This document shows positions 26,543 through 43,319 of a stretch of DNA of 64,000 nt, in pieces (the first letter of the stretch is position 1; every line of letters starts with the position of its first letter). The stretch covers positions 11,142-75,141 of the forward strand of contig JAHEDI010000007.1 in assembly GCA_024641305.1 (NCBI GenBank). The letters are read 5' to 3'. The notes below the pieces were generated by a model. The model did no database searches, was not told the DNA's origin, and was given only the letters and a program-made list of their open reading frames with translations. This DNA is from a bacterium. Its GTDB lineage: Bacteria > Actinomycetota > Acidimicrobiia > Spongiisociales > JAENVV01. Both the position numbers and the translations under genes were made by a program.

Positions 26543-27265
26543 TCAGGCCCCCGCCAGCCATACCGCGGCGGGTTCCTGGTCTGATACGACCACTCCACCA
26601 AACTGCTCCACCGTCAGGGCCAGAACAGCCACTTGCCCCTCAATGCGTAGCGAGGCGACGTGCGGGTTGGGCCCAAGGACTGCAGCACTAACGACCTCAC
26701 CGTCGATGACCGCCCAAAGCTGATAGGTGTGATCCCCGGGGAGTGGTGGCAGGGTATTTTCAACGATCAAAGCCGAACCATCAGGCTGGATGACGAAGGT
26801 AATGGACCCGCCTGGACCGGAGAGCACGGCTGTGCGAGCGTACGGACTGTCTATCGCAGTCGCTAGCAACCGATCCGGAGAGACCTCATCGAGTTGACGA
26901 CTCTGTCCTTCGATTGCGAGAGTCTGCCGGGCGATCGTTGCCTCCAAGGTGACGACTCGACGTTGCTGTATCACCGCAACACCAACGAGGGCAATGATTG
27001 CGGTGGCTGCCACCATTGACAACCAGGGCCAGGGTTGACCAGGCGATCGATCCGGAGTCTTGATGTCGCGAACGACCCGTTGCCAAAGCGACCACGGTAC
27101 GGCTGCCCCCTCGGCAAAGCTAGAGGCCGCCTCCTGGAAATGGCCCACCTCGGTGCGGCACATCGTGCAGATTTCAACGTGAGCCTCGATGACCTGACGT
27201 TCATCGTTATCTACGGCATCGAGCGAATACGCGCCGAGCAGCCCGATTATGTGATCGTGGTCCAC
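26543..27265 (-). CDS. Anti-sigma factor, RskA-like with zinc-binding (ZAS) motif
   Basis: LLGAYSLDA, HxxxCxxC, TM, and C-terminal YQLW..SAAV..ALTVE..GG motifs. Confidence 0.88.
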   Translation of the reverse strand: MDHDHIIGLLGAYSLDAVDNDERQVIEAHVEICTMCRTEVGHFQEAASSFAEGAAVPWSLWQRVVRDIKTPDRSPGQPWPWLSMVAATAIIALVGVAVIQQRRVVTLEATIARQTLAIEGQSRQLDEVSPDRLLATAIDSPYARTAVLSGPGGSITFVIQPDGSALIVENTLPPLPGDHTYQLWAVIDGEVVSAAVLGPNPHVASLRIEGQVAVLALTVEQFGGVVVSDQEPAAVWLAGA

Positions 27266-27273
27266 AACGAGAA

Positions 27274-27849
27274 CTAGGCGTTGACGACGCCGAGCTGACC
27301 CATCGATTCCTGAAGTCGGCTCAGCCCGCTGCGAATCCGGCTCTTGACCGTTCCTTCTGCCATCCCGAGTCGACCGGCAACTTCCCGATAGGTCAAACCG
27401 CCAAAGTACGCCAGTTCGATCACTTGTCGTTCACGCTCGGGGATCGTCTCCAGGGCGGATCGGACTTTCGCTGAAACTGTCATCTGCCAAACCTCTTCGT
27501 CGACACTCGGGACCGATTCAGCCCTCAACAAGGCGTCCCGTTCCTCTCGTGTACGTCGCGAAGACTCCGAGCGGATGACGTCGATTGCCCGGCTATGCGT
27601 CTTGGCGAGAAGAAATGAGCGCAAAGAACCGCGGGAACTGTCGAACGCCTCGGGTTTCTTCCAGAGAGACACGAATACATCTTGGGCGATGTCGCGAGAC
27701 AATTCCTCGTCCCTGATGATTCGCTTGGCAAGCCCGAACACCTGACCGCCATGACGACGATAGATCTCAGCAAGAGCTTCCTCGTCTCGTTCGGTCACCT
27801 CGTGTACAAGATCAGCGTCTTCAAAACTTGAGTCGTCCCGATACATCAT
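27274..27849 (-). CDS. ECF sigma factor (SigK-like); probable start ATG 27849
   Basis: DIAQDVFVSLW, FDSSRGS, RAID and ELAYFGGLTYREVA..GTVKSRIRSGL motifs; SD AAGGA. Confidence 0.9.
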   Translation of the reverse strand: MMYRDDSSFEDADLVHEVTERDEEALAEIYRRHGGQVFGLAKRIIRDEELSRDIAQDVFVSLWKKPEAFDSSRGSLRSFLLAKTHSRAIDVIRSESSRRTREERDALLRAESVPSVDEEVWQMTVSAKVRSALETIPERERQVIELAYFGGLTYREVAGRLGMAEGTVKSRIRSGLSRLQESMGQLGVVNA

Positions 27850-27867
27850 TGCTCGTCCTTCTTGGTG

Positions 27868-27923
27868 TGACATATTTTTAGCACTAAAACCGGTCATCTG
27901 TCAACTCAATCATGCGTTAGACT
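27868..27923. promoter_or_regulatory. Divergent promoter region with palindromic operator candidate
   Basis: TTTTAG-CA-CTAAAA at 27876-27889; minus-strand TTGACA at 27904-27899; plus-strand TAGACT at 27918-23, 7 nt before ATG 27931. Confidence 0.55.
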
Positions 27924-35878: not shown

Positions 35879-35936
35879 ATAGGTTGTCGCAAGCTCAACC
35901 GGTCAGCTACTTGTGCCGAGCGCGTACTATGGCCCC

Positions 35937-37082
35937 ATGCCGACCAGATCCGACGTCATGGAGACACTCAAGGGTGTCATCGATCCAGAATTGGGAAGCG
36001 ACCTCGTAGACCTGGGAATGATCCAGGACGTCCACGTGAGTGCCGAAGGGGTCGTCACGATCGATCTAGCCCTCACCATCGCCGAATGCCCGATGCGAAA
36101 CCAAATCGAATCTGACACTACCCGTAAGGTCGGGTCCCTGCCCGGGGTCACCCGGGTCGAGATTCGAACGACCGCCATGACCAAGCAGCAACGAGCCGAC
36201 CTGATGTCGACCGCCCGTTTTCGGGTCAGGGAGCGGGCTGAGCCGACCAAGCTGTCGCCGACGACCAGGGTGATCGCGGTGAGTTCGGGCAAGGGCGGAG
36301 TCGGAAAGTCATCGGCCAGTACCAACCTGGCACTCGCCACCGCCGCCATGGGATATCGGGTCGGATTGCTTGACGCCGATATTTGGGGTTTCTCGATTCC
36401 ACGAATGCTCAACATCACGGAACGAATCACCGCCAACGAGGAACGGAATCTGGTTCCGGTGGAAGCCTACGGGCTCAAAGTGGTGTCGACCGGACTCATT
36501 GTCGAGTCCGAGGAGACCGCCCTCATGTGGCGGGGCCTTATGCTGTCAAAGGCCCTCGAGCAGTTCCTCAAACAAGTGGAGTGGGGGGAACTCGACTACC
36601 TCTTCCTCGATATGCCGCCGGGGACCGGTGATGTCCAGATGGCTCTCACCCGACTCCTTCCCCAGGCCGAGATGATCGTGGTGACCACCCCCCAACAAGC
36701 CGCCCAAAAGGTCGCCATCCGGGTCGCCGACATGGCCCGTCGCTCGTTCATGCCGGTGGTTGGGGCACTCGAGAACATGACGCACTTCGTGTGCGACCAC
36801 GGGGATATCTACGAATTGTTCGGATCCGGCGGTGGGGCGGAACTCGCCGAGGTTCTCAACGTCCCCCTCATCGGTTCGATCCCGATCGACCCGCAGATGG
36901 TCGCAGGCGGTGACAACGGGTTACCGGTTGTCGTTCACGCCCCCGACAGTCCCTCCGGCCGAGCGTTTCGAGAAGCGGCCGCCCGACTGATCGAAATCGT
37001 GCCGCCCGCCCAGGACGAAACCTGCACCGGACGAATCGCCAAGTTGCTCGAAGCGCTACCAGTAACTAGTCACTCCGAGTAA
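35937..37082 (+). CDS. mrp: Mrp/NBP35 (ApbC) Fe-S carrier ATPase with DUF59 domain
   Basis: VIDPELG, SGKGGVGKS, DADIWG, DMPPGTGD, VVTTPQ and ENM motifs; TACTAT box 6 nt before ATG 35937. Confidence 0.93.
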   Translation: MPTRSDVMETLKGVIDPELGSDLVDLGMIQDVHVSAEGVVTIDLALTIAECPMRNQIESDTTRKVGSLPGVTRVEIRTTAMTKQQRADLMSTARFRVRERAEPTKLSPTTRVIAVSSGKGGVGKSSASTNLALATAAMGYRVGLLDADIWGFSIPRMLNITERITANEERNLVPVEAYGLKVVSTGLIVESEETALMWRGLMLSKALEQFLKQVEWGELDYLFLDMPPGTGDVQMALTRLLPQAEMIVVTTPQQAAQKVAIRVADMARRSFMPVVGALENMTHFVCDHGDIYELFGSGGGAELAEVLNVPLIGSIPIDPQMVAGGDNGLPVVVHAPDSPSGRAFREAAARLIEIVPPAQDETCTGRIAKLLEALPVTSHSE

Positions 37083-37096
37083 CTTCTAAACCGCCC

Positions 37097-37125
37097 CCAA
37101 GTTAACCGGCCCTCCTGACCGATAT
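37097..37125 (+). promoter_or_regulatory. Possible sigma28/WhiG-type promoter for the downstream RNA
   Basis: CCAAG-N16-ACCGATAT. Confidence 0.4.
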
Positions 37126-37139
37126 AAGAAAAGAACGTG

Positions 37140-37312
37140 CCAAAGGAACCAGGGACCGGTTGGGAGTCATCCGAAGAGATGCTCCCCCTCCGGAGCTCTC
37201 AAGAAACAGTGAAGGACCGATCCTCCGTTATCGGTCCTTCACTCGTTTTGGATGCTGGCCGCCGTGCAACGCCAGACTCCCTGACTCAACAACGCGTCAG
37301 GACCGGGTTCAA
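37140..37312 (+). ncRNA. Candidate Ms1-like structured RNA
   Basis: Helices 37146-50/37306-10, 37156-60/37302-06, 37162-68/37275-81, 37168-75/37247-54, hairpin 37176-37200, perfect 14-bp hairpin 37208-21/37230-43, and hairpins 37255-75 and 37280-301; lies between convergent genes. Confidence 0.65.
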
Positions 37313-38397
37313 CCACACAAGGAACGGACGAGCGGGGTCGGGTTAACGGCTGACCCACCACCTGGGTGATACTCGAAGTGGAGGTGCGGCACGTTGGCGG
37401 GAGCGTTGCCGGTGGTTCCAACCTCCCCGACCTTGGTACCCGCCGAGACATGCTGACCTTTGGATATTCCCGAAGCGAACGAGTCGAGATGGGCATAATA
37501 GAAATCATCACCAGAGTCGCCCTTGAACCAGATCGTGATGCCACCAATGCCACCATTGCCCATCCGGGATATGGTTCCCGCTTCGATCGCTACGAGAGCG
37601 GTACCTCGGGCCGCAAGCATGTCAACGCCCTTGTGACTGCGACCACCCGACCGCGACGCTCCCCAGGTATCGGAAAAGGCCACCACGCCCTGGACGGGGC
37701 ACGTGCGGCCTGACACGACCACAGGTGGCGGAGCTCCCCTATCGCTGCTATTGCCGCCTCCGGCGGCGATCCGGGCGGCCTCGGCGAGTCGAAGCCGCTC
37801 CTGCTCAGCAGCCAGACGAGCCGCCTCCTGGGCCTGCCATTCGGTGTAGATCTCGTTGTACTGCGACTGAGCAGCTTCGAGCGTCTGGTTCAACTCTTCG
37901 GCGGTCGCCTCCAGCTTGACATTCGCCTCCTTCTGGGAGGCCCGGGCTGCGGCCAGGTCCGCCTCAATCCGGGCGATATCGCGCTCCAAGATTGCCAACT
38001 GATTCAGCAGAGCTTGGTCGTCGTCGCTGGCATCGCGCAGATACGCCAACCCTGCCTCCATGTCTGACAGCGAGCCGGCTCCGGTAAACAGCGGAAGATG
38101 GTTTCCCAGTGCTCCGATGTACATGTCAACAGCCCGTTCGGTGGCCACCACCCGGGTTAGCTCCATCTGACGGTCCAATTCGGCTGCCTGACTTTCTGCC
38201 CCAGCAATCAGCCAATCAAGGTGTTCCGTCTCCTCAAGGGCAGCTTCGTAGGCCGCCGCCAGCGCCTGCACCTCGTCCCGGACCGCAATCAACTCGCCTT
38301 TCGCCTTCTCCAACTCCTCCGGGGTGACCTCTCCGCGCGCTGGCAAGGCCACAACAAGAATCAGGAGGAAGGCCAGTGGGAACAGTCGACGCATCAT
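37309..38397 (-). CDS. M23 family peptidoglycan endopeptidase with coiled coil (EnvC/NlpD-like); start 38397
   Basis: Signal peptide, long coiled coil, HKGVD, YYAHL and PHLHFE motifs. Confidence 0.92.
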   Translation of the reverse strand: MMRRLFPLAFLLILVVALPARGEVTPEELEKAKGELIAVRDEVQALAAAYEAALEETEHLDWLIAGAESQAAELDRQMELTRVVATERAVDMYIGALGNHLPLFTGAGSLSDMEAGLAYLRDASDDDQALLNQLAILERDIARIEADLAAARASQKEANVKLEATAEELNQTLEAAQSQYNEIYTEWQAQEAARLAAEQERLRLAEAARIAAGGGNSSDRGAPPPVVVSGRTCPVQGVVAFSDTWGASRSGGRSHKGVDMLAARGTALVAIEAGTISRMGNGGIGGITIWFKGDSGDDFYYAHLDSFASGISKGQHVSAGTKVGEVGTTGNAPANVPHLHFEYHPGGGSAVNPTPLVRSLCG

Positions 38398-39182
38398 GCG
38401 CGAACCATCTCGACCAGTGACCCCCATAGGTCCGACGCACCAGCTTCGCCGAACGTAATCAGCCCGTCGTCGGTCAGCTTGCGGAGATGGGCTGCTACCG
38501 ACAGTGCCGCGACCCGGTGCAACTCCTCGGGAACATCCTTGTATACCTCGATGACGACGTCTCCGACCGATCCAGCCCCATCCTGCAAGGCGTTCACGAT
38601 CTCTTTTTCTCGCTCCATCCGGTGGGAAATGTAGTAGTCGATTACTTCCTGAGGGTTGTCGATCTCCGGGCCATGGCCGGGCAACAACTTCGAAAGGGAA
38701 ACCGATTGGAGTCGTTCAAGCGACGCCAGGTAGCGGGTCAGGTCTTCGATCATCACGGTCGAGCCACCGATGATGTGATCACCGGTGAACATGGTGGTAC
38801 CAAGCAGCAGGCAAATGTGATCGTCGGCATGGCCGGGGGTGTAAAGAACCTCGAGCGTCTCACCCTCCACTTCGATGTGATCACCCTCCCGGACCAGGTC
38901 GGTCGGGGCGAACTCCGGTCCGGGTGCAAATCCGTAGACCGGGGCATCAACTTCGAGCCCGAGCGGATTGGCCAGCGGGGCGTGATCGGGATGGGTGTGG
39001 GTGACAACGATCGCGGCGGTTCGGCGATCGCCGATCGCCTCGAGAATCCGGTCGCGATGTTCAGGAATGACGGGTCCCGGGTCGATTACCAGGGCGCGTG
39101 TTTCGCCTCCAAGCACATAGGTGTTGGTACCGGCCCCGGTAAACAAACCGGGATTCGGAGCGAGAAGATGGACAATGTTCAT
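38394..39182 (-). CDS. MBL-fold metallo-hydrolase (LACTB2-like)
   Basis: APNPG..GTNTY, THTHPDH, TPGHADDH, FTGDH and PGHG motifs. Confidence 0.92.
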   Translation of the reverse strand: MNIVHLLAPNPGLFTGAGTNTYVLGGETRALVIDPGPVIPEHRDRILEAIGDRRTAAIVVTHTHPDHAPLANPLGLEVDAPVYGFAPGPEFAPTDLVREGDHIEVEGETLEVLYTPGHADDHICLLLGTTMFTGDHIIGGSTVMIEDLTRYLASLERLQSVSLSKLLPGHGPEIDNPQEVIDYYISHRMEREKEIVNALQDGAGSVGDVVIEVYKDVPEELHRVAALSVAAHLRKLTDDGLITFGEAGASDLWGSLVEMVRA

Positions 39183-40197: not shown

Positions 40198-41535
40198 ATG
40201 ACTCTCCGTGACCTGCCTTCGGTCGATGCGCTCGCCAGACAACTCAACGGAATCCCCCGGGTCGTAGCCACCGAGGTGGCCCGTTCGTCCCTTGAGGAGG
40301 CTCGACGTCTCCTGGTTGACGGCCAGCCCGCCGACGCCAGCGAGATCGCCGCCGCCCACGCCCGAAGGCTCGCCAGGCTCAAATTCCGGTCACTGATCAA
40401 CGCCACCGGCGTGCTGCTCCACACCAACCTTGGCCGGGCCCCGGTGCACCCTGACGCCGTTCGGGCTGCCGCTGAGGCAACTCTGGGGTATGGCAACCTC
40501 GAATTTGACCTCGACCAGGGTGAACGAGGCGGGCGGGGTGCCTATGTGCACGAATTGCTCATGGCTTTGACCGGCGCAGAAGCTGCCCTGGTCGTCAACA
40601 ATAACGCGGCCGCGTTGCTACTGGCCCTGGCCACGCTTGGAACGTCAAAAGGGGTCGTAGTCTCGCGAGGTGAACTGATCGAGATTGGCGGGTCATATCG
40701 GCTCCCCGAACTCATGGCGGCATCCGGCGCAGAGATGATCGAAGTCGGAACCACCAATCGGACCAGAATCGCCGATTATGCGCAAGTGGCACCAGCTGCG
40801 GGCCTGCTTCTGAAAGTCCACCCGTCGAACTACCGGGTGGTCGGCTTTACCGAATCAGCCGCCAGCCAGGAACTCGTCGAACTTTCCCGCCGCAGCGACG
40901 TACCGTATGCCTACGACGTCGGTTCCGGTCTGGTAGATGAGACCAGCCCCTGGATCTCCGGACCTCCCCCAAACTGGCTGGCAGGAGAACCTGGCGTACG
41001 TCAGGAAATCGACCGGGGAACTGGCCTCGTCATGTTCTCCGGAGACAAACTCTTTGGCGGACCGCAGGCCGGGATCATGGTCGGCGAAAGCCACCTCATC
41101 AAACGCATCAAGTCACATCCGATGGCCAGAGCCATGCGCGTGCCAGGACCGACCCTGGCGGCCCTGGCGGTAATCACCGAAATGTACCTGGACGGGCGGG
41201 CCCTCGAGATCCCGTTCTGGAGGATGGCAACTGCCCCATACGAACACCTTGAAATTCGGTTGCAAGCCCTACTCGACGCGGGCATCCCGGGCACGATCAT
41301 CGAAAGCACCTCGTTGTTGGGAGCCGGGTCGGTGCCCGGAATGACCGTGGCATCACCAGCACTCCAGGTCACCGCTCAAGCCGATCGGCTGTGGGACGAG
41401 CTGTTGGCCGCCGAACGCCCACTGATCGGACGGCGGGAGGCAGGGGCCTTCCTCGTCGACCTTCGATCGGTCAACCCCGACGAGGACGCATCGGTGGCCG
41501 CCACGTTGCGGGCTGCTGTCGCCGCATGCCAGTAG
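40198..41535 (+). CDS. selA: L-seryl-tRNA(Sec) selenium transferase
   Basis: LPSVD, INATGVLLHTNLGRA, VNNNAAA, SRGELIEIGG, EVGTTNRT and FSGDKLFGGPQAG motifs. Confidence 0.96.
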   Translation: MTLRDLPSVDALARQLNGIPRVVATEVARSSLEEARRLLVDGQPADASEIAAAHARRLARLKFRSLINATGVLLHTNLGRAPVHPDAVRAAAEATLGYGNLEFDLDQGERGGRGAYVHELLMALTGAEAALVVNNNAAALLLALATLGTSKGVVVSRGELIEIGGSYRLPELMAASGAEMIEVGTTNRTRIADYAQVAPAAGLLLKVHPSNYRVVGFTESAASQELVELSRRSDVPYAYDVGSGLVDETSPWISGPPPNWLAGEPGVRQEIDRGTGLVMFSGDKLFGGPQAGIMVGESHLIKRIKSHPMARAMRVPGPTLAALAVITEMYLDGRALEIPFWRMATAPYEHLEIRLQALLDAGIPGTIIESTSLLGAGSVPGMTVASPALQVTAQADRLWDELLAAERPLIGRREAGAFLVDLRSVNPDEDASVAATLRAAVAACQ

Positions 41536-43319
41536 TCGGTACCGCGGGCCATGTGGATCATGGCAAATCCACACTCATCCAGGCACTGACCGGCCGGGAC
41601 CCCGACCGCCTCGCCGAAGAAAAAACTCGTGGGTTGACGATCGACCTTGGTTTTGCCTGGACTGATCTTGACGGAATCGAGGTGTCATTTGTTGACGTTC
41701 CCGGCCACGAACGGTTCATGAAGAACATGCTGGCCGGCACAGAGGCAATCGACATCGCCATCCTGGTCGTGGCTGCCGACGAGGGCTGGATGCCCCAGAC
41801 GGAAGAACACCTCGCGGTCCTCGACCTCCTCGGGGTTTCCCTCGGCGTCGTCGCCATAACCAAGACCGATCGGGTTGATCCCGAATTGCTCGAACTCGCC
41901 GAACTGGAGATCGAAGAACAGGTGGCAGGCACCGCCTTCGAGACGGCCCGACTCATCGCAGTGTCTGCGATGAACGGCGACGGACTCGACGACCTTCGTA
42001 CCGAGCTGCGGTCGCTCTGCGAACAAGCCGAGACCCGACGGATCCTCAAAGATCCAGCGTTGTGGGTTGATCGCTCCTTCAGCATCGACGGCGCCGGAAC
42101 CGTTGTGACCGGGACGCTTCTGGGCGGTCCTCTATCAGTTGGCCAGACGCTTTCGGCCTGGCCGGGTGGTCACTCGGTTCGGATTCGCACGTTGCACAGC
42201 CATGAGCAGACCCACGAAACGGTTTTCGCCGGTCGGCGCACGGCCGCCAATCTGGTCGGGATAACCAGGGATCAGATCGCCAGAGGGTCGCTCCTTTCCC
42301 CTTCACCGTGGCCGACCAGTTCTTCGTTCAGTGTGGTTATGCGACCTGCTCGATACGCAGATGACGTCGGCGAGCGAGGGGCCTACCACCTCCATATGGG
42401 ATCCGGTTCGTGGCCGGTCGAGCTCCGACCGTTGACCGGCAACGAGGACCCTGACGTTGGAAATCCGATGACGGCGCTGATCAGGTCTGAAATCCCACTT
42501 CCGGTCCGGGTCGGGGAGCGCTTCATCCTGCGCGAAACCGGTCGGCAATCGGTGGTTGCCGGAGGTCGCATCGTCGATCCGGCCGCCCCCCGTCGGGCGG
42601 CAGAAGCTCGCCAGGCGCTTCGTCAACTAGAAGGAATCCTTGAAGCCGATCAGAACGATGCCGCCACCCAACTTCTTGACGCCCGCGGCATCTGCACCGT
42701 CCATGAACTCGCCGGTTGGACGGGCGGCGGGTACCCCCGCACCGGTCTCACACGCGGCGATGTGGCCATTTCCGTCGGGCGGGTAGCCGAATTGCTGACC
42801 TCGGCGGTGCACGATGTTGCCGCTTTCCATCACGAACACCCATTACGAGAGGGGATGCCGGTCGCCAGTCTGGCAAGTCGCCTCAACCTTGACATCGACA
42901 CCACCCGAGCACTCCTTGCCATGGACGACCGGGTGCGCGACGACGGACCGACCACCGCCCTGATTACGTTCAACGCCGGTCTGACGGACACTCAGGAATC
43001 GCAACTCATAACGGTCATCGGTCAACTGACAACCGCCGGATTTAACGTGCCAAGGCTCGACGAACTCAACCTCGACCGCGAACTGCTCCACATAGCGCTC
43101 CGGGAAGGCAGGCTGGTCCGAGTCTCAGATGATCTGGTGTTCCTCCCCGACCAAATCGAGGCCATCGGGAGCCGGCTACGAGAATTGCCCACCCCGTTCG
43201 GGGTGGGCAATTTCAAGGATGTCATTGGAGTATCGCGCAAGTACGCAGTGCCACTGCTCGAGTACTTCGACGCGCTTGGAGTTACCCAACGCGTCGGGAA
43301 CGATCGGATCCTGCGCTAG
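41526..43319 (+). CDS. selB: Selenocysteine-specific elongation factor; start corrected to ATG 41526
   Basis: GTAGHVDHGKS, RGLTIDLGF, DVPGHERF and TKTD motifs; C-terminal SRKYAVPLLEYFD..R winged helix. Confidence 0.96.
   Translation: MPVVGTAGHVDHGKSTLIQALTGRDPDRLAEEKTRGLTIDLGFAWTDLDGIEVSFVDVPGHERFMKNMLAGTEAIDIAILVVAADEGWMPQTEEHLAVLDLLGVSLGVVAITKTDRVDPELLELAELEIEEQVAGTAFETARLIAVSAMNGDGLDDLRTELRSLCEQAETRRILKDPALWVDRSFSIDGAGTVVTGTLLGGPLSVGQTLSAWPGGHSVRIRTLHSHEQTHETVFAGRRTAANLVGITRDQIARGSLLSPSPWPTSSSFSVVMRPARYADDVGERGAYHLHMGSGSWPVELRPLTGNEDPDVGNPMTALIRSEIPLPVRVGERFILRETGRQSVVAGGRIVDPAAPRRAAEARQALRQLEGILEADQNDAATQLLDARGICTVHELAGWTGGGYPRTGLTRGDVAISVGRVAELLTSAVHDVAAFHHEHPLREGMPVASLASRLNLDIDTTRALLAMDDRVRDDGPTTALITFNAGLTDTQESQLITVIGQLTTAGFNVPRLDELNLDRELLHIALREGRLVRVSDDLVFLPDQIEAIGSRLRELPTPFGVGNFKDVIGVSRKYAVPLLEYFDALGVTQRVGNDRILR

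Follow-up and report, generated by a model that had tools for sequence, protein, structure and literature searches.

The gap between two convergent genes, an mrp homologue and an M23 peptidase gene, in a stretch of 64,000 nucleotides (nt) from a genome of the class Acidimicrobiia (hereafter, the window) probably holds a self-contained non-coding RNA gene on the + strand, about 115 nt in length (approximately positions 37132–37249) and equipped with a promoter and a terminator of its own; on comparative evidence, we hold this view with moderate confidence. The RNA likely represents a new small-RNA family, a reading supported by the conservation of the element, the covariation in its terminator, the recurrence of its promoter type, and the pattern of presence and absence among genomes, and the family has so far been seen in only one order of uncultured Acidimicrobiia. 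The original prediction for this locus was a compact Ms1-like RNA with a nested multi-helix structure of about 170 nt. The comparative data agree with its description of a stand-alone RNA gene, not a leader, that has a promoter-like stretch, comprises more than a terminator, and possibly founds a new family; the nested fold and the kinship with Ms1 did not hold up. Acidimicrobiia are abundant in sediments and waters and are mostly uncultured, and their RNA regulators are almost undescribed; judged by title and abstract, none of the papers found on Acidimicrobiia and small RNAs concerns a small RNA of this class. A small-RNA gene that is conserved, can be dated, and has a promoter that can be recognised would give work on RNA regulation in these bacteria a concrete starting point.

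The two genes converge, mrp stopping at 37082 and the M23 gene at 37309, with a gap of 226 nt between them. This gap and all of the helices previously listed for it can be read in the sequence: GGGAGTC (37162–37168) stands opposite GACTCCC (37275–37281), CATCCGAA (37168–37175) stands opposite TTTGGATG (37247–37254, one G-U pair included), a perfect 14-base-pair (14-bp) hairpin is formed by 37208–37221 and 37230–37243, and the side hairpins are likewise readable. The + strand of 37083–37312 folded at −87.0 kcal/mol (z = −4.52), which was equalled by 0 of 200 shuffles, and this signal is owed mostly to the 14-bp hairpin. When 61 related genomes were searched for DNA relatives of the gap, strong matches were obtained only in 7 other genomes of the same genus, and the matches outside the genus were short and at chance level (E 0.0016 or worse). 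Two of the same-genus genomes matched the whole gap with 92% identity, and in the other 5 of the 7 the similarity ended at about query position 166 (37248), the end of the T-run. The conserved stretch extends from the last mrp codons (37065) to the T-run past the 14-bp hairpin (37249), whereas the next 60 nt are unalignable; in other words, more than the 14-bp hairpin is conserved among the orthologous mrp–M23 gaps. Both closing stems of the proposed 170-nt RNA, in contrast, need the unconserved 37250–37308. GACTCCC has been replaced without a compensating change in both of the 92%-identical relatives, and the partner of CATCCGAA has been lost in the other five; the only helices kept in the genus are the hairpin at 37176–37200 and the 14-bp hairpin. 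Because the partners in the closing stems were lost uncompensated, even at 92% identity, the nested structure is, judging from these alignments, a feature of this one sequence only.

Indels of 1 and 2 nt occur inside the conserved part among the same-genus genomes and do not keep the reading frames, and for this reason coding on either strand was ruled out. A gene for a small protein is accordingly highly improbable. Two + strand open reading frames of 69 amino acids (37137–37346 and 37160–37369) and a 22-codon frame on the minus strand can be read, but the same-genus indels fall inside these frames, the + strand frames run through the terminator, and the GTG frame of genus g51 stops after three codons.

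The wider distribution of the element was examined with covariance models. A model built from the 8 genus sequences (R1) found full-length copies in a genome of another genus of the same family (G010) and in genus g51 of another family. A second model (R2), comprising 16 sequences and including the upstream blocks, found 34 convincing full-length copies, one doubtful copy, and four terminator-only matches among 151 genomes of the order. Full-length copies were present in 9/18 genomes of family f1 (the window's own genome not counted), 17/18 of f7, 5 or 6 of the 7 genomes of f6, 1/2 of f5, 1/19 of f4, and 0/86 of families f2, f3, and f8–f12. The presence in f5, like one of the 32 distinct copies described below, depends on the unpublished genome G025; another unpublished genome, G036, enters only the sigma-factor tally. 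In a sample of the class (151 genomes), full-length copies occurred in 7 genomes of the order, the window's own included, and the 114 genomes of other orders gave no full-length copy and one terminator-only match. No match was found in a phylum sample of 146 genomes outside the order. The larger searches were run with Infernal's stricter filters on samples, so that these negatives hold for the genomes searched. When a collection of species genomes was scanned with a strict pattern, it yielded 9 loci, all titled as metagenome-assembled genomes (MAGs) of Acidimicrobiia or Actinomycetota.

The 32 distinct copies share a series of blocks whose spacers vary in sequence and are nearly fixed in length (17–18 nt and 8–11 nt). 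ACTAGT occurs 44–52 nt before the CGA block in 31/32 copies. It belongs to the ACTAGTCA box, which is intergenic in other genera, travels with the module in an inverted copy described below, and is possibly an activator or operator site. The A-rich, promoter-like stretch noted earlier in front of the helices indeed contains a conserved CGATAT block resembling a −10 element. Its central CGA is present in 32/32 copies and CGATA in 30/32, and the corresponding 8-mers are GTCGATAC (13 copies), CCCGATAC (7), ACCGATAT (5), GCCGATAT (3), and others (4). The invariant GAACGTGCC follows at a distance of 7–10 nt from the 8-mer, with CGA 7–16 nt upstream of it in 32/32 copies and CGATA 5–14 nt upstream in 30/32. 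Downstream of this 5′ block, TGGGAG is found in 27/32 copies, and 14/32 have at least two copies of CTGGGAG.

The element ends at the 14-bp hairpin, which combines the marks of an intrinsic terminator: a G+C-rich stem, a T-run, and compensatory change. All 14 pairs covaried (14/14), and 96.4% of cells in the alignment were paired, whereas shuffles reached 76.3% and controls with slid partners no more than 53%; one row of the alignment represents this hairpin as hit on the reverse strand. A clear U-run follows the hairpin in genus g13, and some of the lineages have T-rich tails. The predicted RNA measures 112 nt to the end of the stem here and 72–137 nt in relatives. The strand of the transcript could be read the other way, with a functional RNA on the minus strand as an M23 3′ untranslated region or an antisense RNA. 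The minus strand of 37083–37312 has the lower fold energy (−98.6 kcal/mol, z = −3.20), and a metatranscriptomic contig considered below (X17) continues into the M23 side. However, conservation stops at the hairpin and the 60 nt beside the M23 stop are unconserved, G-U pairs outnumber A-C mismatches 17 to 7 in the terminator when it is read on the + strand, which favours that strand, + strand U-runs occur in several lineages, and the element is present without M23 at two loci. We regard a minus-strand RNA as very unlikely.

The structure between the 5′ block and the terminator is suggestive only. A hairpin with a C/U-rich loop is found in the window's family and in genus g51, with differing stems (GCUCC/GGAGC, GGUCUUC/GAAGACC, GUUCCC/GGGAAC, and UCCCC/GGGGA), and genus g13 has none. 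Internal hairpins were set aside as proof of structure, the shuffle control being too weak.

As for its position, a homologue of mrp lies directly upstream of the element on the same strand in 30/31 distinct loci where this side is visible, and a homologue of M23 lies on the far side in 30/32; at the two remaining loci (L090 and L092), the next gene encodes an MBL hydrolase. In genome G011 (locus L067, 1475–1703), the whole module, which runs from ACTAGT through the terminator, has been inverted within the same gap and follows M23. This rare local flip involves a 200-nt unit and was seen in a single MAG. Where a genus lacks the element, the mrp and M23 stops are 5 nt apart (G019) or a plain short hairpin lies between them (G033). 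By these comparisons, the element is a detachable insert, with the inversion known from one MAG.

This pattern bears on an explanation in terms of DNA parts only, namely a regulated promoter that fires toward the 3′ end of M23 and a bidirectional terminator, the transcript being functionless, a relic leader, or a source of transcriptional interference. Consistent with it, both strands of the 14-bp hairpin were flagged as terminator-like in a scan of 36800–37600, the first transcribed bases bear a loose resemblance to the leaders behind other promoters of the same class, and support for internal RNA structure is weak. If the transcript were only a spacer, however, it would be left unexplained why GAACGTGCC (32/32) and TGGGAG (27/32), both downstream of the predicted start, are the best-conserved blocks; moreover, the element is kept without M23 at L090 and L092, and in genomes without it a gap of 5 nt or a simple hairpin suffices. 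We consider the DNA-parts explanation rather unlikely.

The blocks upstream of the predicted start also recur elsewhere in the genome. Among 31 oriented ACTAGTYA sites, 6 had CGATAY 45–47 nt downstream, whereas all other spacings between 0 and 124 together accounted for only 3 cases and a reversed-pattern control gave 0. The five promoters of this class that do not belong to the RNA are each followed, after 26–43 nt, by a ribosome-binding site and start codon. Two of them precede paralogous S8 subtilases (Pfam 5e−41 and 1e−39). Two others precede genes for proteins of 64 and 65 amino acids that start with GLSWDHGKRK or GLSWQHGKQK, continue with a hydrophobic stretch, and end with GSTWG, with a third paralogue of 65 amino acids encoded between them, and the fifth precedes a gene for a cysteine-containing protein of 90 amino acids. 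The ACTAGTCA-type pattern was also found in G011 (3), G026 (3), G128 (2), and G027 (1), and was absent (0) from G019, a genome without the RNA; the control gave 0 in all five genomes. In G011, G026, and G128, promoters of the class again stand before genes for an S8 subtilase, for a GLAWDHGRR protein, and for related small cysteine proteins, and before a pilin-like gene. We infer from this recurrence that the block architecture is a working promoter type, and because it recurs as such, the predicted start of the RNA was placed a few bases before GAACGUGCC. A scan for CCCAAG..CGATA had found the arrangement to be unique in the genome in that form; the class emerged only with anchoring on ACTAGT.

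Several of the genes behind these promoters have features of their own. The S8 subtilases (G000 C58:14388–18003; L110 189–1892 and 2065–3804, minus strand) carry long C-terminal GSTWS repeats and a GLTWDHGKRIR tail, and this tail is possibly a signal for sorting or processing that has yet to be described. Three tandem genes at G000 C11:35780–36728 (L109 1181–1375, 1542–1739, and 1932–2129) encode the proteins of 64–65 amino acids, each with a GLSW(D/E/Q)HGK(R/Q)K start, a single hydrophobic stretch, and a GSTWG end; these echo the tail and repeats of the S8 proteases, have a homologue in G011 (L117) with the same promoter type, and match no Pfam family. Proteins of 64–90 amino acids with a C-x2-C motif, for which no Pfam family matches were found either, are encoded behind class promoters at G000 C80:5126–5398 (L111 1527–1799, minus strand), G011 L120 1587–1814, and G128 L116 801–995, and could be regulators of this gene set.

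The −10 element of the RNA promoters is of the sigma-28/WhiG type. The available text on actinobacterial WhiG2 promoters gives a consensus with T(A/C)AA at −35, a spacer of N16, and GCCGATAA at −10, in which CGA is invariant (PMC12871210, PMC8325347). The RNA promoters carry the GCCGATAA-type −10 with its invariant central CGA, and CCAA at −35 matches three of the four consensus bases, 16 nt upstream of the −10 8-mer in 15/32 copies and 17 nt upstream in 9/32. The promoters are like those of WhiG and sigma-28 (FliA) in their xxCGATAx with invariant CGA and in a 4-mer ending in AA 16–17 nt upstream; they are unlike them in having CCAA, not TAAA or TCAA, and an extra ACTAGTCA box about 55 nt upstream. 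The genome encodes one clear sigma factor of the WhiG/FliA family (G000 C35:139972–140640, L076; TIGR02479 274 bits against a cut-off of 189.6), and no flagellin gene was found in it. Because of the type of the −10 element, this single WhiG-family sigma factor, and the lack of a flagellin gene, the RNA promoter might well depend on WhiG, although we stop short of calling this the expected outcome. The presence of WhiG was rejected as a correlate of the RNA, the sigma factor being nearly ubiquitous in the order; it was found in 0/18 genomes of family f11. RsiG is reported from 3/4 Acidimicrobiales species in the available text of PMC8325347, and the word "sRNA" occurs 0 times in that of PMC12871210. 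Separately, canonical TAAA-N15-CCGATA sequences before likely start codons in G000 (C69 near 44151 and C60 near 57559) are candidate classical WhiG/sigma-28 promoters.

Taken together, the small-RNA gene would work as follows. The promoter would consist of ACTAGTCA at about −68, CCAA at −35, and (A/G)CCGATAT at −10, in fixed spacing, and would be transcribed with WhiG, perhaps helped by an activator on the upstream box. The transcript would start just before the invariant GAACGUGCC, carry UGGGAG(G) once in this genome and twice in some families, continue in the window's family with a hairpin that presents a CCUCC-type loop, and end at the covarying intrinsic terminator. As to function, which is the weakest step, action in trans seems most likely: the invariant blocks, being single-stranded, would find C/U-rich partners in mRNAs or possibly pair with another RNA. 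Its synthesis would coincide with that of the secreted S8 proteases and the small membrane proteins whose genes have the same promoter type. A CsrA-type sponge was dismissed, no CsrA gene having been found in the genome. It is conceivable, though improbable, that this RNA represents the first case of a small RNA under the control of the cyclic di-GMP (c-di-GMP)/RsiG/WhiG switch. WhiG and a factor bound to the ACTAGTCA box would then drive it as part of a surface programme of the non-flagellated Acidimicrobiales, comprising GSTWS-repeat S8 proteases, GLSWDHGKR membrane proteins, and pilin-like genes, and the Shine-Dalgarno-like UGGGAGG motifs and the invariant 5′ end would act post-transcriptionally, either pairing with C/U-rich mRNA sites or soaking up a C-rich regulator. 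If the link to WhiG is true, regulons of c-di-GMP-controlled sigma factors extend to an RNA regulator.

Several observations weigh against the interpretation as an independent small-RNA gene. Contigs (Logan) of four metatranscriptome runs (X16–X19) were compared with 36700–37700, and only X17 covers the element, with one contig of 151 nt (approximately 37139–37288) that comes from a close relative and runs through the terminator. Its depth is low, like that of the flanking genes, and such contigs show neither strand nor ends, so that it could be DNA or read-through from M23. Hits of 10-mers complementary to the 5′ block were at chance level and yielded no target. Regarding the promoter, the −35 element has C where the WhiG consensus has T, the spacer in the window's genus is 17 nt, the other ACTAGTCA-class promoters in the genome are without a TAAA-like −35, WhiG-family sigma factors occur in 130/151 genomes of the order whether the RNA is present or not, and a sigma-70 consensus scan of 36800–37600 found no promoter. 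The invariance of the blocks is partly ascertained, as the search models contained them. No single internal fold suits all lineages, and up to 42% of dinucleotide shuffles, and more than 5% in most of the lineages tested, yield hairpins that equal those with the C/U loop or the G loop. Finally, independence from mrp is thinly based, the inversion having been observed in a single MAG, and the regularity with which mrp precedes the element on the same strand makes a link to the mrp 3′ end possible.

Such a link is the core of another explanation, in which what is conserved is the 3′ untranslated region of mrp, perhaps processed into a 3′-derived small RNA, with no promoter of its own and with the upstream blocks as RNA elements. 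The position directly after mrp on the same strand in 30/31 loci and the negative sigma-70 scan would fit this, as would the overlap of the first box with the end of the mrp coding sequence in the window's genus and a long helix (37108–37121/37157–37166) that RNAalifold predicted from the genus alignment with a little covariation. This helix is not kept in other genera and was dropped. Furthermore, the spacers are fixed in length and variable in sequence, as in a promoter, the same block architecture stands before protein-coding genes elsewhere in the genome, and the inverted module in G011 follows M23. We judge a 3′ untranslated region of mrp to be unlikely and retain the small-RNA gene as the preferred interpretation; its parts and flanks are listed in Table 1.

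Table 1. Positions in the window of the predicted small-RNA gene, its blocks, and its flanks
Feature	Positions	Strand	Remarks
ACTAGTCA upstream box	37065..37072	+	about 55 nt before the −10-like block; overlaps the last mrp codons
AAACCGCCCCCAAGT block	37088..37102	+	−35-like CCAA at 37097–37100; conserved in alignments A5 and A7
ACCGATAT, sigma-28/WhiG-type −10-like 8-mer	37118..37125	+	conserved CGA
Predicted small RNA, about 115 nt	37132..37249	+	from conservation limits; start inferred at 37131–37134, end at the T-run
GAACGTGCC, invariant block at the predicted 5′ end	37133..37141	+	32/32 distinct elements
TTGGGAG, G-rich, Shine-Dalgarno-like motif	37160..37166	+	TGGGAGG in most relatives
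Hairpin with C/U-rich loop CCCTCC (37186–37191)	37176..37200	+	invariant within the genus
Predicted intrinsic terminator (14-bp hairpin, loop 37222–37229, tail CGTTTT)	37208..37249	+	terminator scan, covariation
mrp/apbC-type Fe-S carrier ATPase gene, upstream flank	35913..37082	+	Pfam ParA/NUBPL 3.8e−86, FeS_assembly_P
M23 peptidase gene, convergent flank, C-terminal M23 domain	37309..38427	-	Pfam Peptidase_M23 4.2e−20
Non-conserved spacer with two local hairpins, outside the element	37250..37308	.	alignable only in the two 92%-identical genomes

Elsewhere in the window, an ECF (extracytoplasmic function) sigma factor gene (27274–27897) adjoins a gene for an RskA-type anti-sigma factor (26543–27265). 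A SelB-type elongation factor is encoded at 41391–43319, pointing to the use of selenocysteine, and no tRNA-Sec was found in the window. An Rfam scan of the whole window at gathering thresholds returned one tRNA only, which ARAGORN identified as tRNA-Pro.

Among known systems, Ms1 (MTS2823), known from mycobacteria and Streptomyces, is the one to which the locus had been likened. Ms1 is described in the available text of PMC9130861 as an RNA of about 300 nt (about 230 nt in Streptomyces coelicolor) that binds the RNA polymerase core and forms a 6S-like rod with a central bubble and extra hairpins; its flanks are genes for an HAD-IB hydrolase (phosphoserine phosphatase) and an oxidoreductase, and RNAs of less than 150 nt were excluded as 6S or Ms1. 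The element resembles Ms1 as an actinobacterial non-coding RNA gene between protein-coding genes. Most of the gene context cited in favour of kinship was found in the window, which shares RidA, MBL, asd, ask, recR, dnaX, and tRNA-Pro with the region named for Ms1 in the original prediction, and no 6S RNA (RF00013, a rod of about 180 nt with a bubble) was detected in the region or the whole genome at E values up to 10, so that the niche could be open. However, a permissive Rfam search of 36950–37450 (E up to 10, 4227 families) gave no match to Ms1, 6S, or 6C, and no Rfam family matched 8 homologous loci; this is weak evidence, as Rfam detects Ms1 only in close relatives of mycobacteria (PMC9130861). 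Further differences from Ms1 are the predicted length of 72–137 nt against about 230–300 nt, with conservation ending at 37249, the self-contained 3′ terminator hairpin in place of conserved 5′/3′ pairing, the closing stems being unconserved, and the flanks, which are mrp and M23. The HAD-IB genes of the genome lie on contigs C25 and C63, not on the window's contig, and were discarded as the home of a true Ms1, with no large gap (by crude calling of open reading frames) and no Rfam match at E values up to 1. A compact homologue of Ms1 or 6S, a folded rod that binds RNA polymerase, is contradicted on length, fold, and synteny and has next to no probability in our view. This removes a false lead, in that the element does not represent the Ms1 or 6S still missing from deep-branching Actinomycetota.

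Other families show partial likenesses. The 6C RNA (RF01066), which pairs with mRNAs through C-rich loops without a chaperone according to the available text of PMC6486639, is also a short actinobacterial RNA, and the hairpin at 37176–37200 presents CCCUCC in the manner of its C-rich loops. In contrast to 6C, RF01066 has no match in the region (E up to 10), the C/U-loop hairpin is missing in genus g13, and the invariant parts are GAACGUGCC and the G-rich motif, not C-rich loops. The only 6C-like match in the genome was weak (G000 C38:22553–22621, L031; 30 bits against a cut-off of 47) and was rejected, as it reads as a C-rich, terminator-like hairpin. The best hit of the permissive Rfam search, and the only family to score even weakly, was CcsR1 (RF02791; 37166–37248), one of the CCUCCUCCC-motif RNAs of Rhodobacter, at 24.3 bits, far from the gathering score of 65.3. 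Both have two hairpins with CCUCC-type loops, but here the motif in the second loop fails to hold even among same-genus genomes, and the host phylum differs. DapZ and MicL of enterobacteria have promoters of their own that overlap the 3′ end of the upstream gene, and they share or supply its terminator region. Unlike RNAs of this class, the module described here is detachable from mrp, as the inverted copy in G011 suggests.

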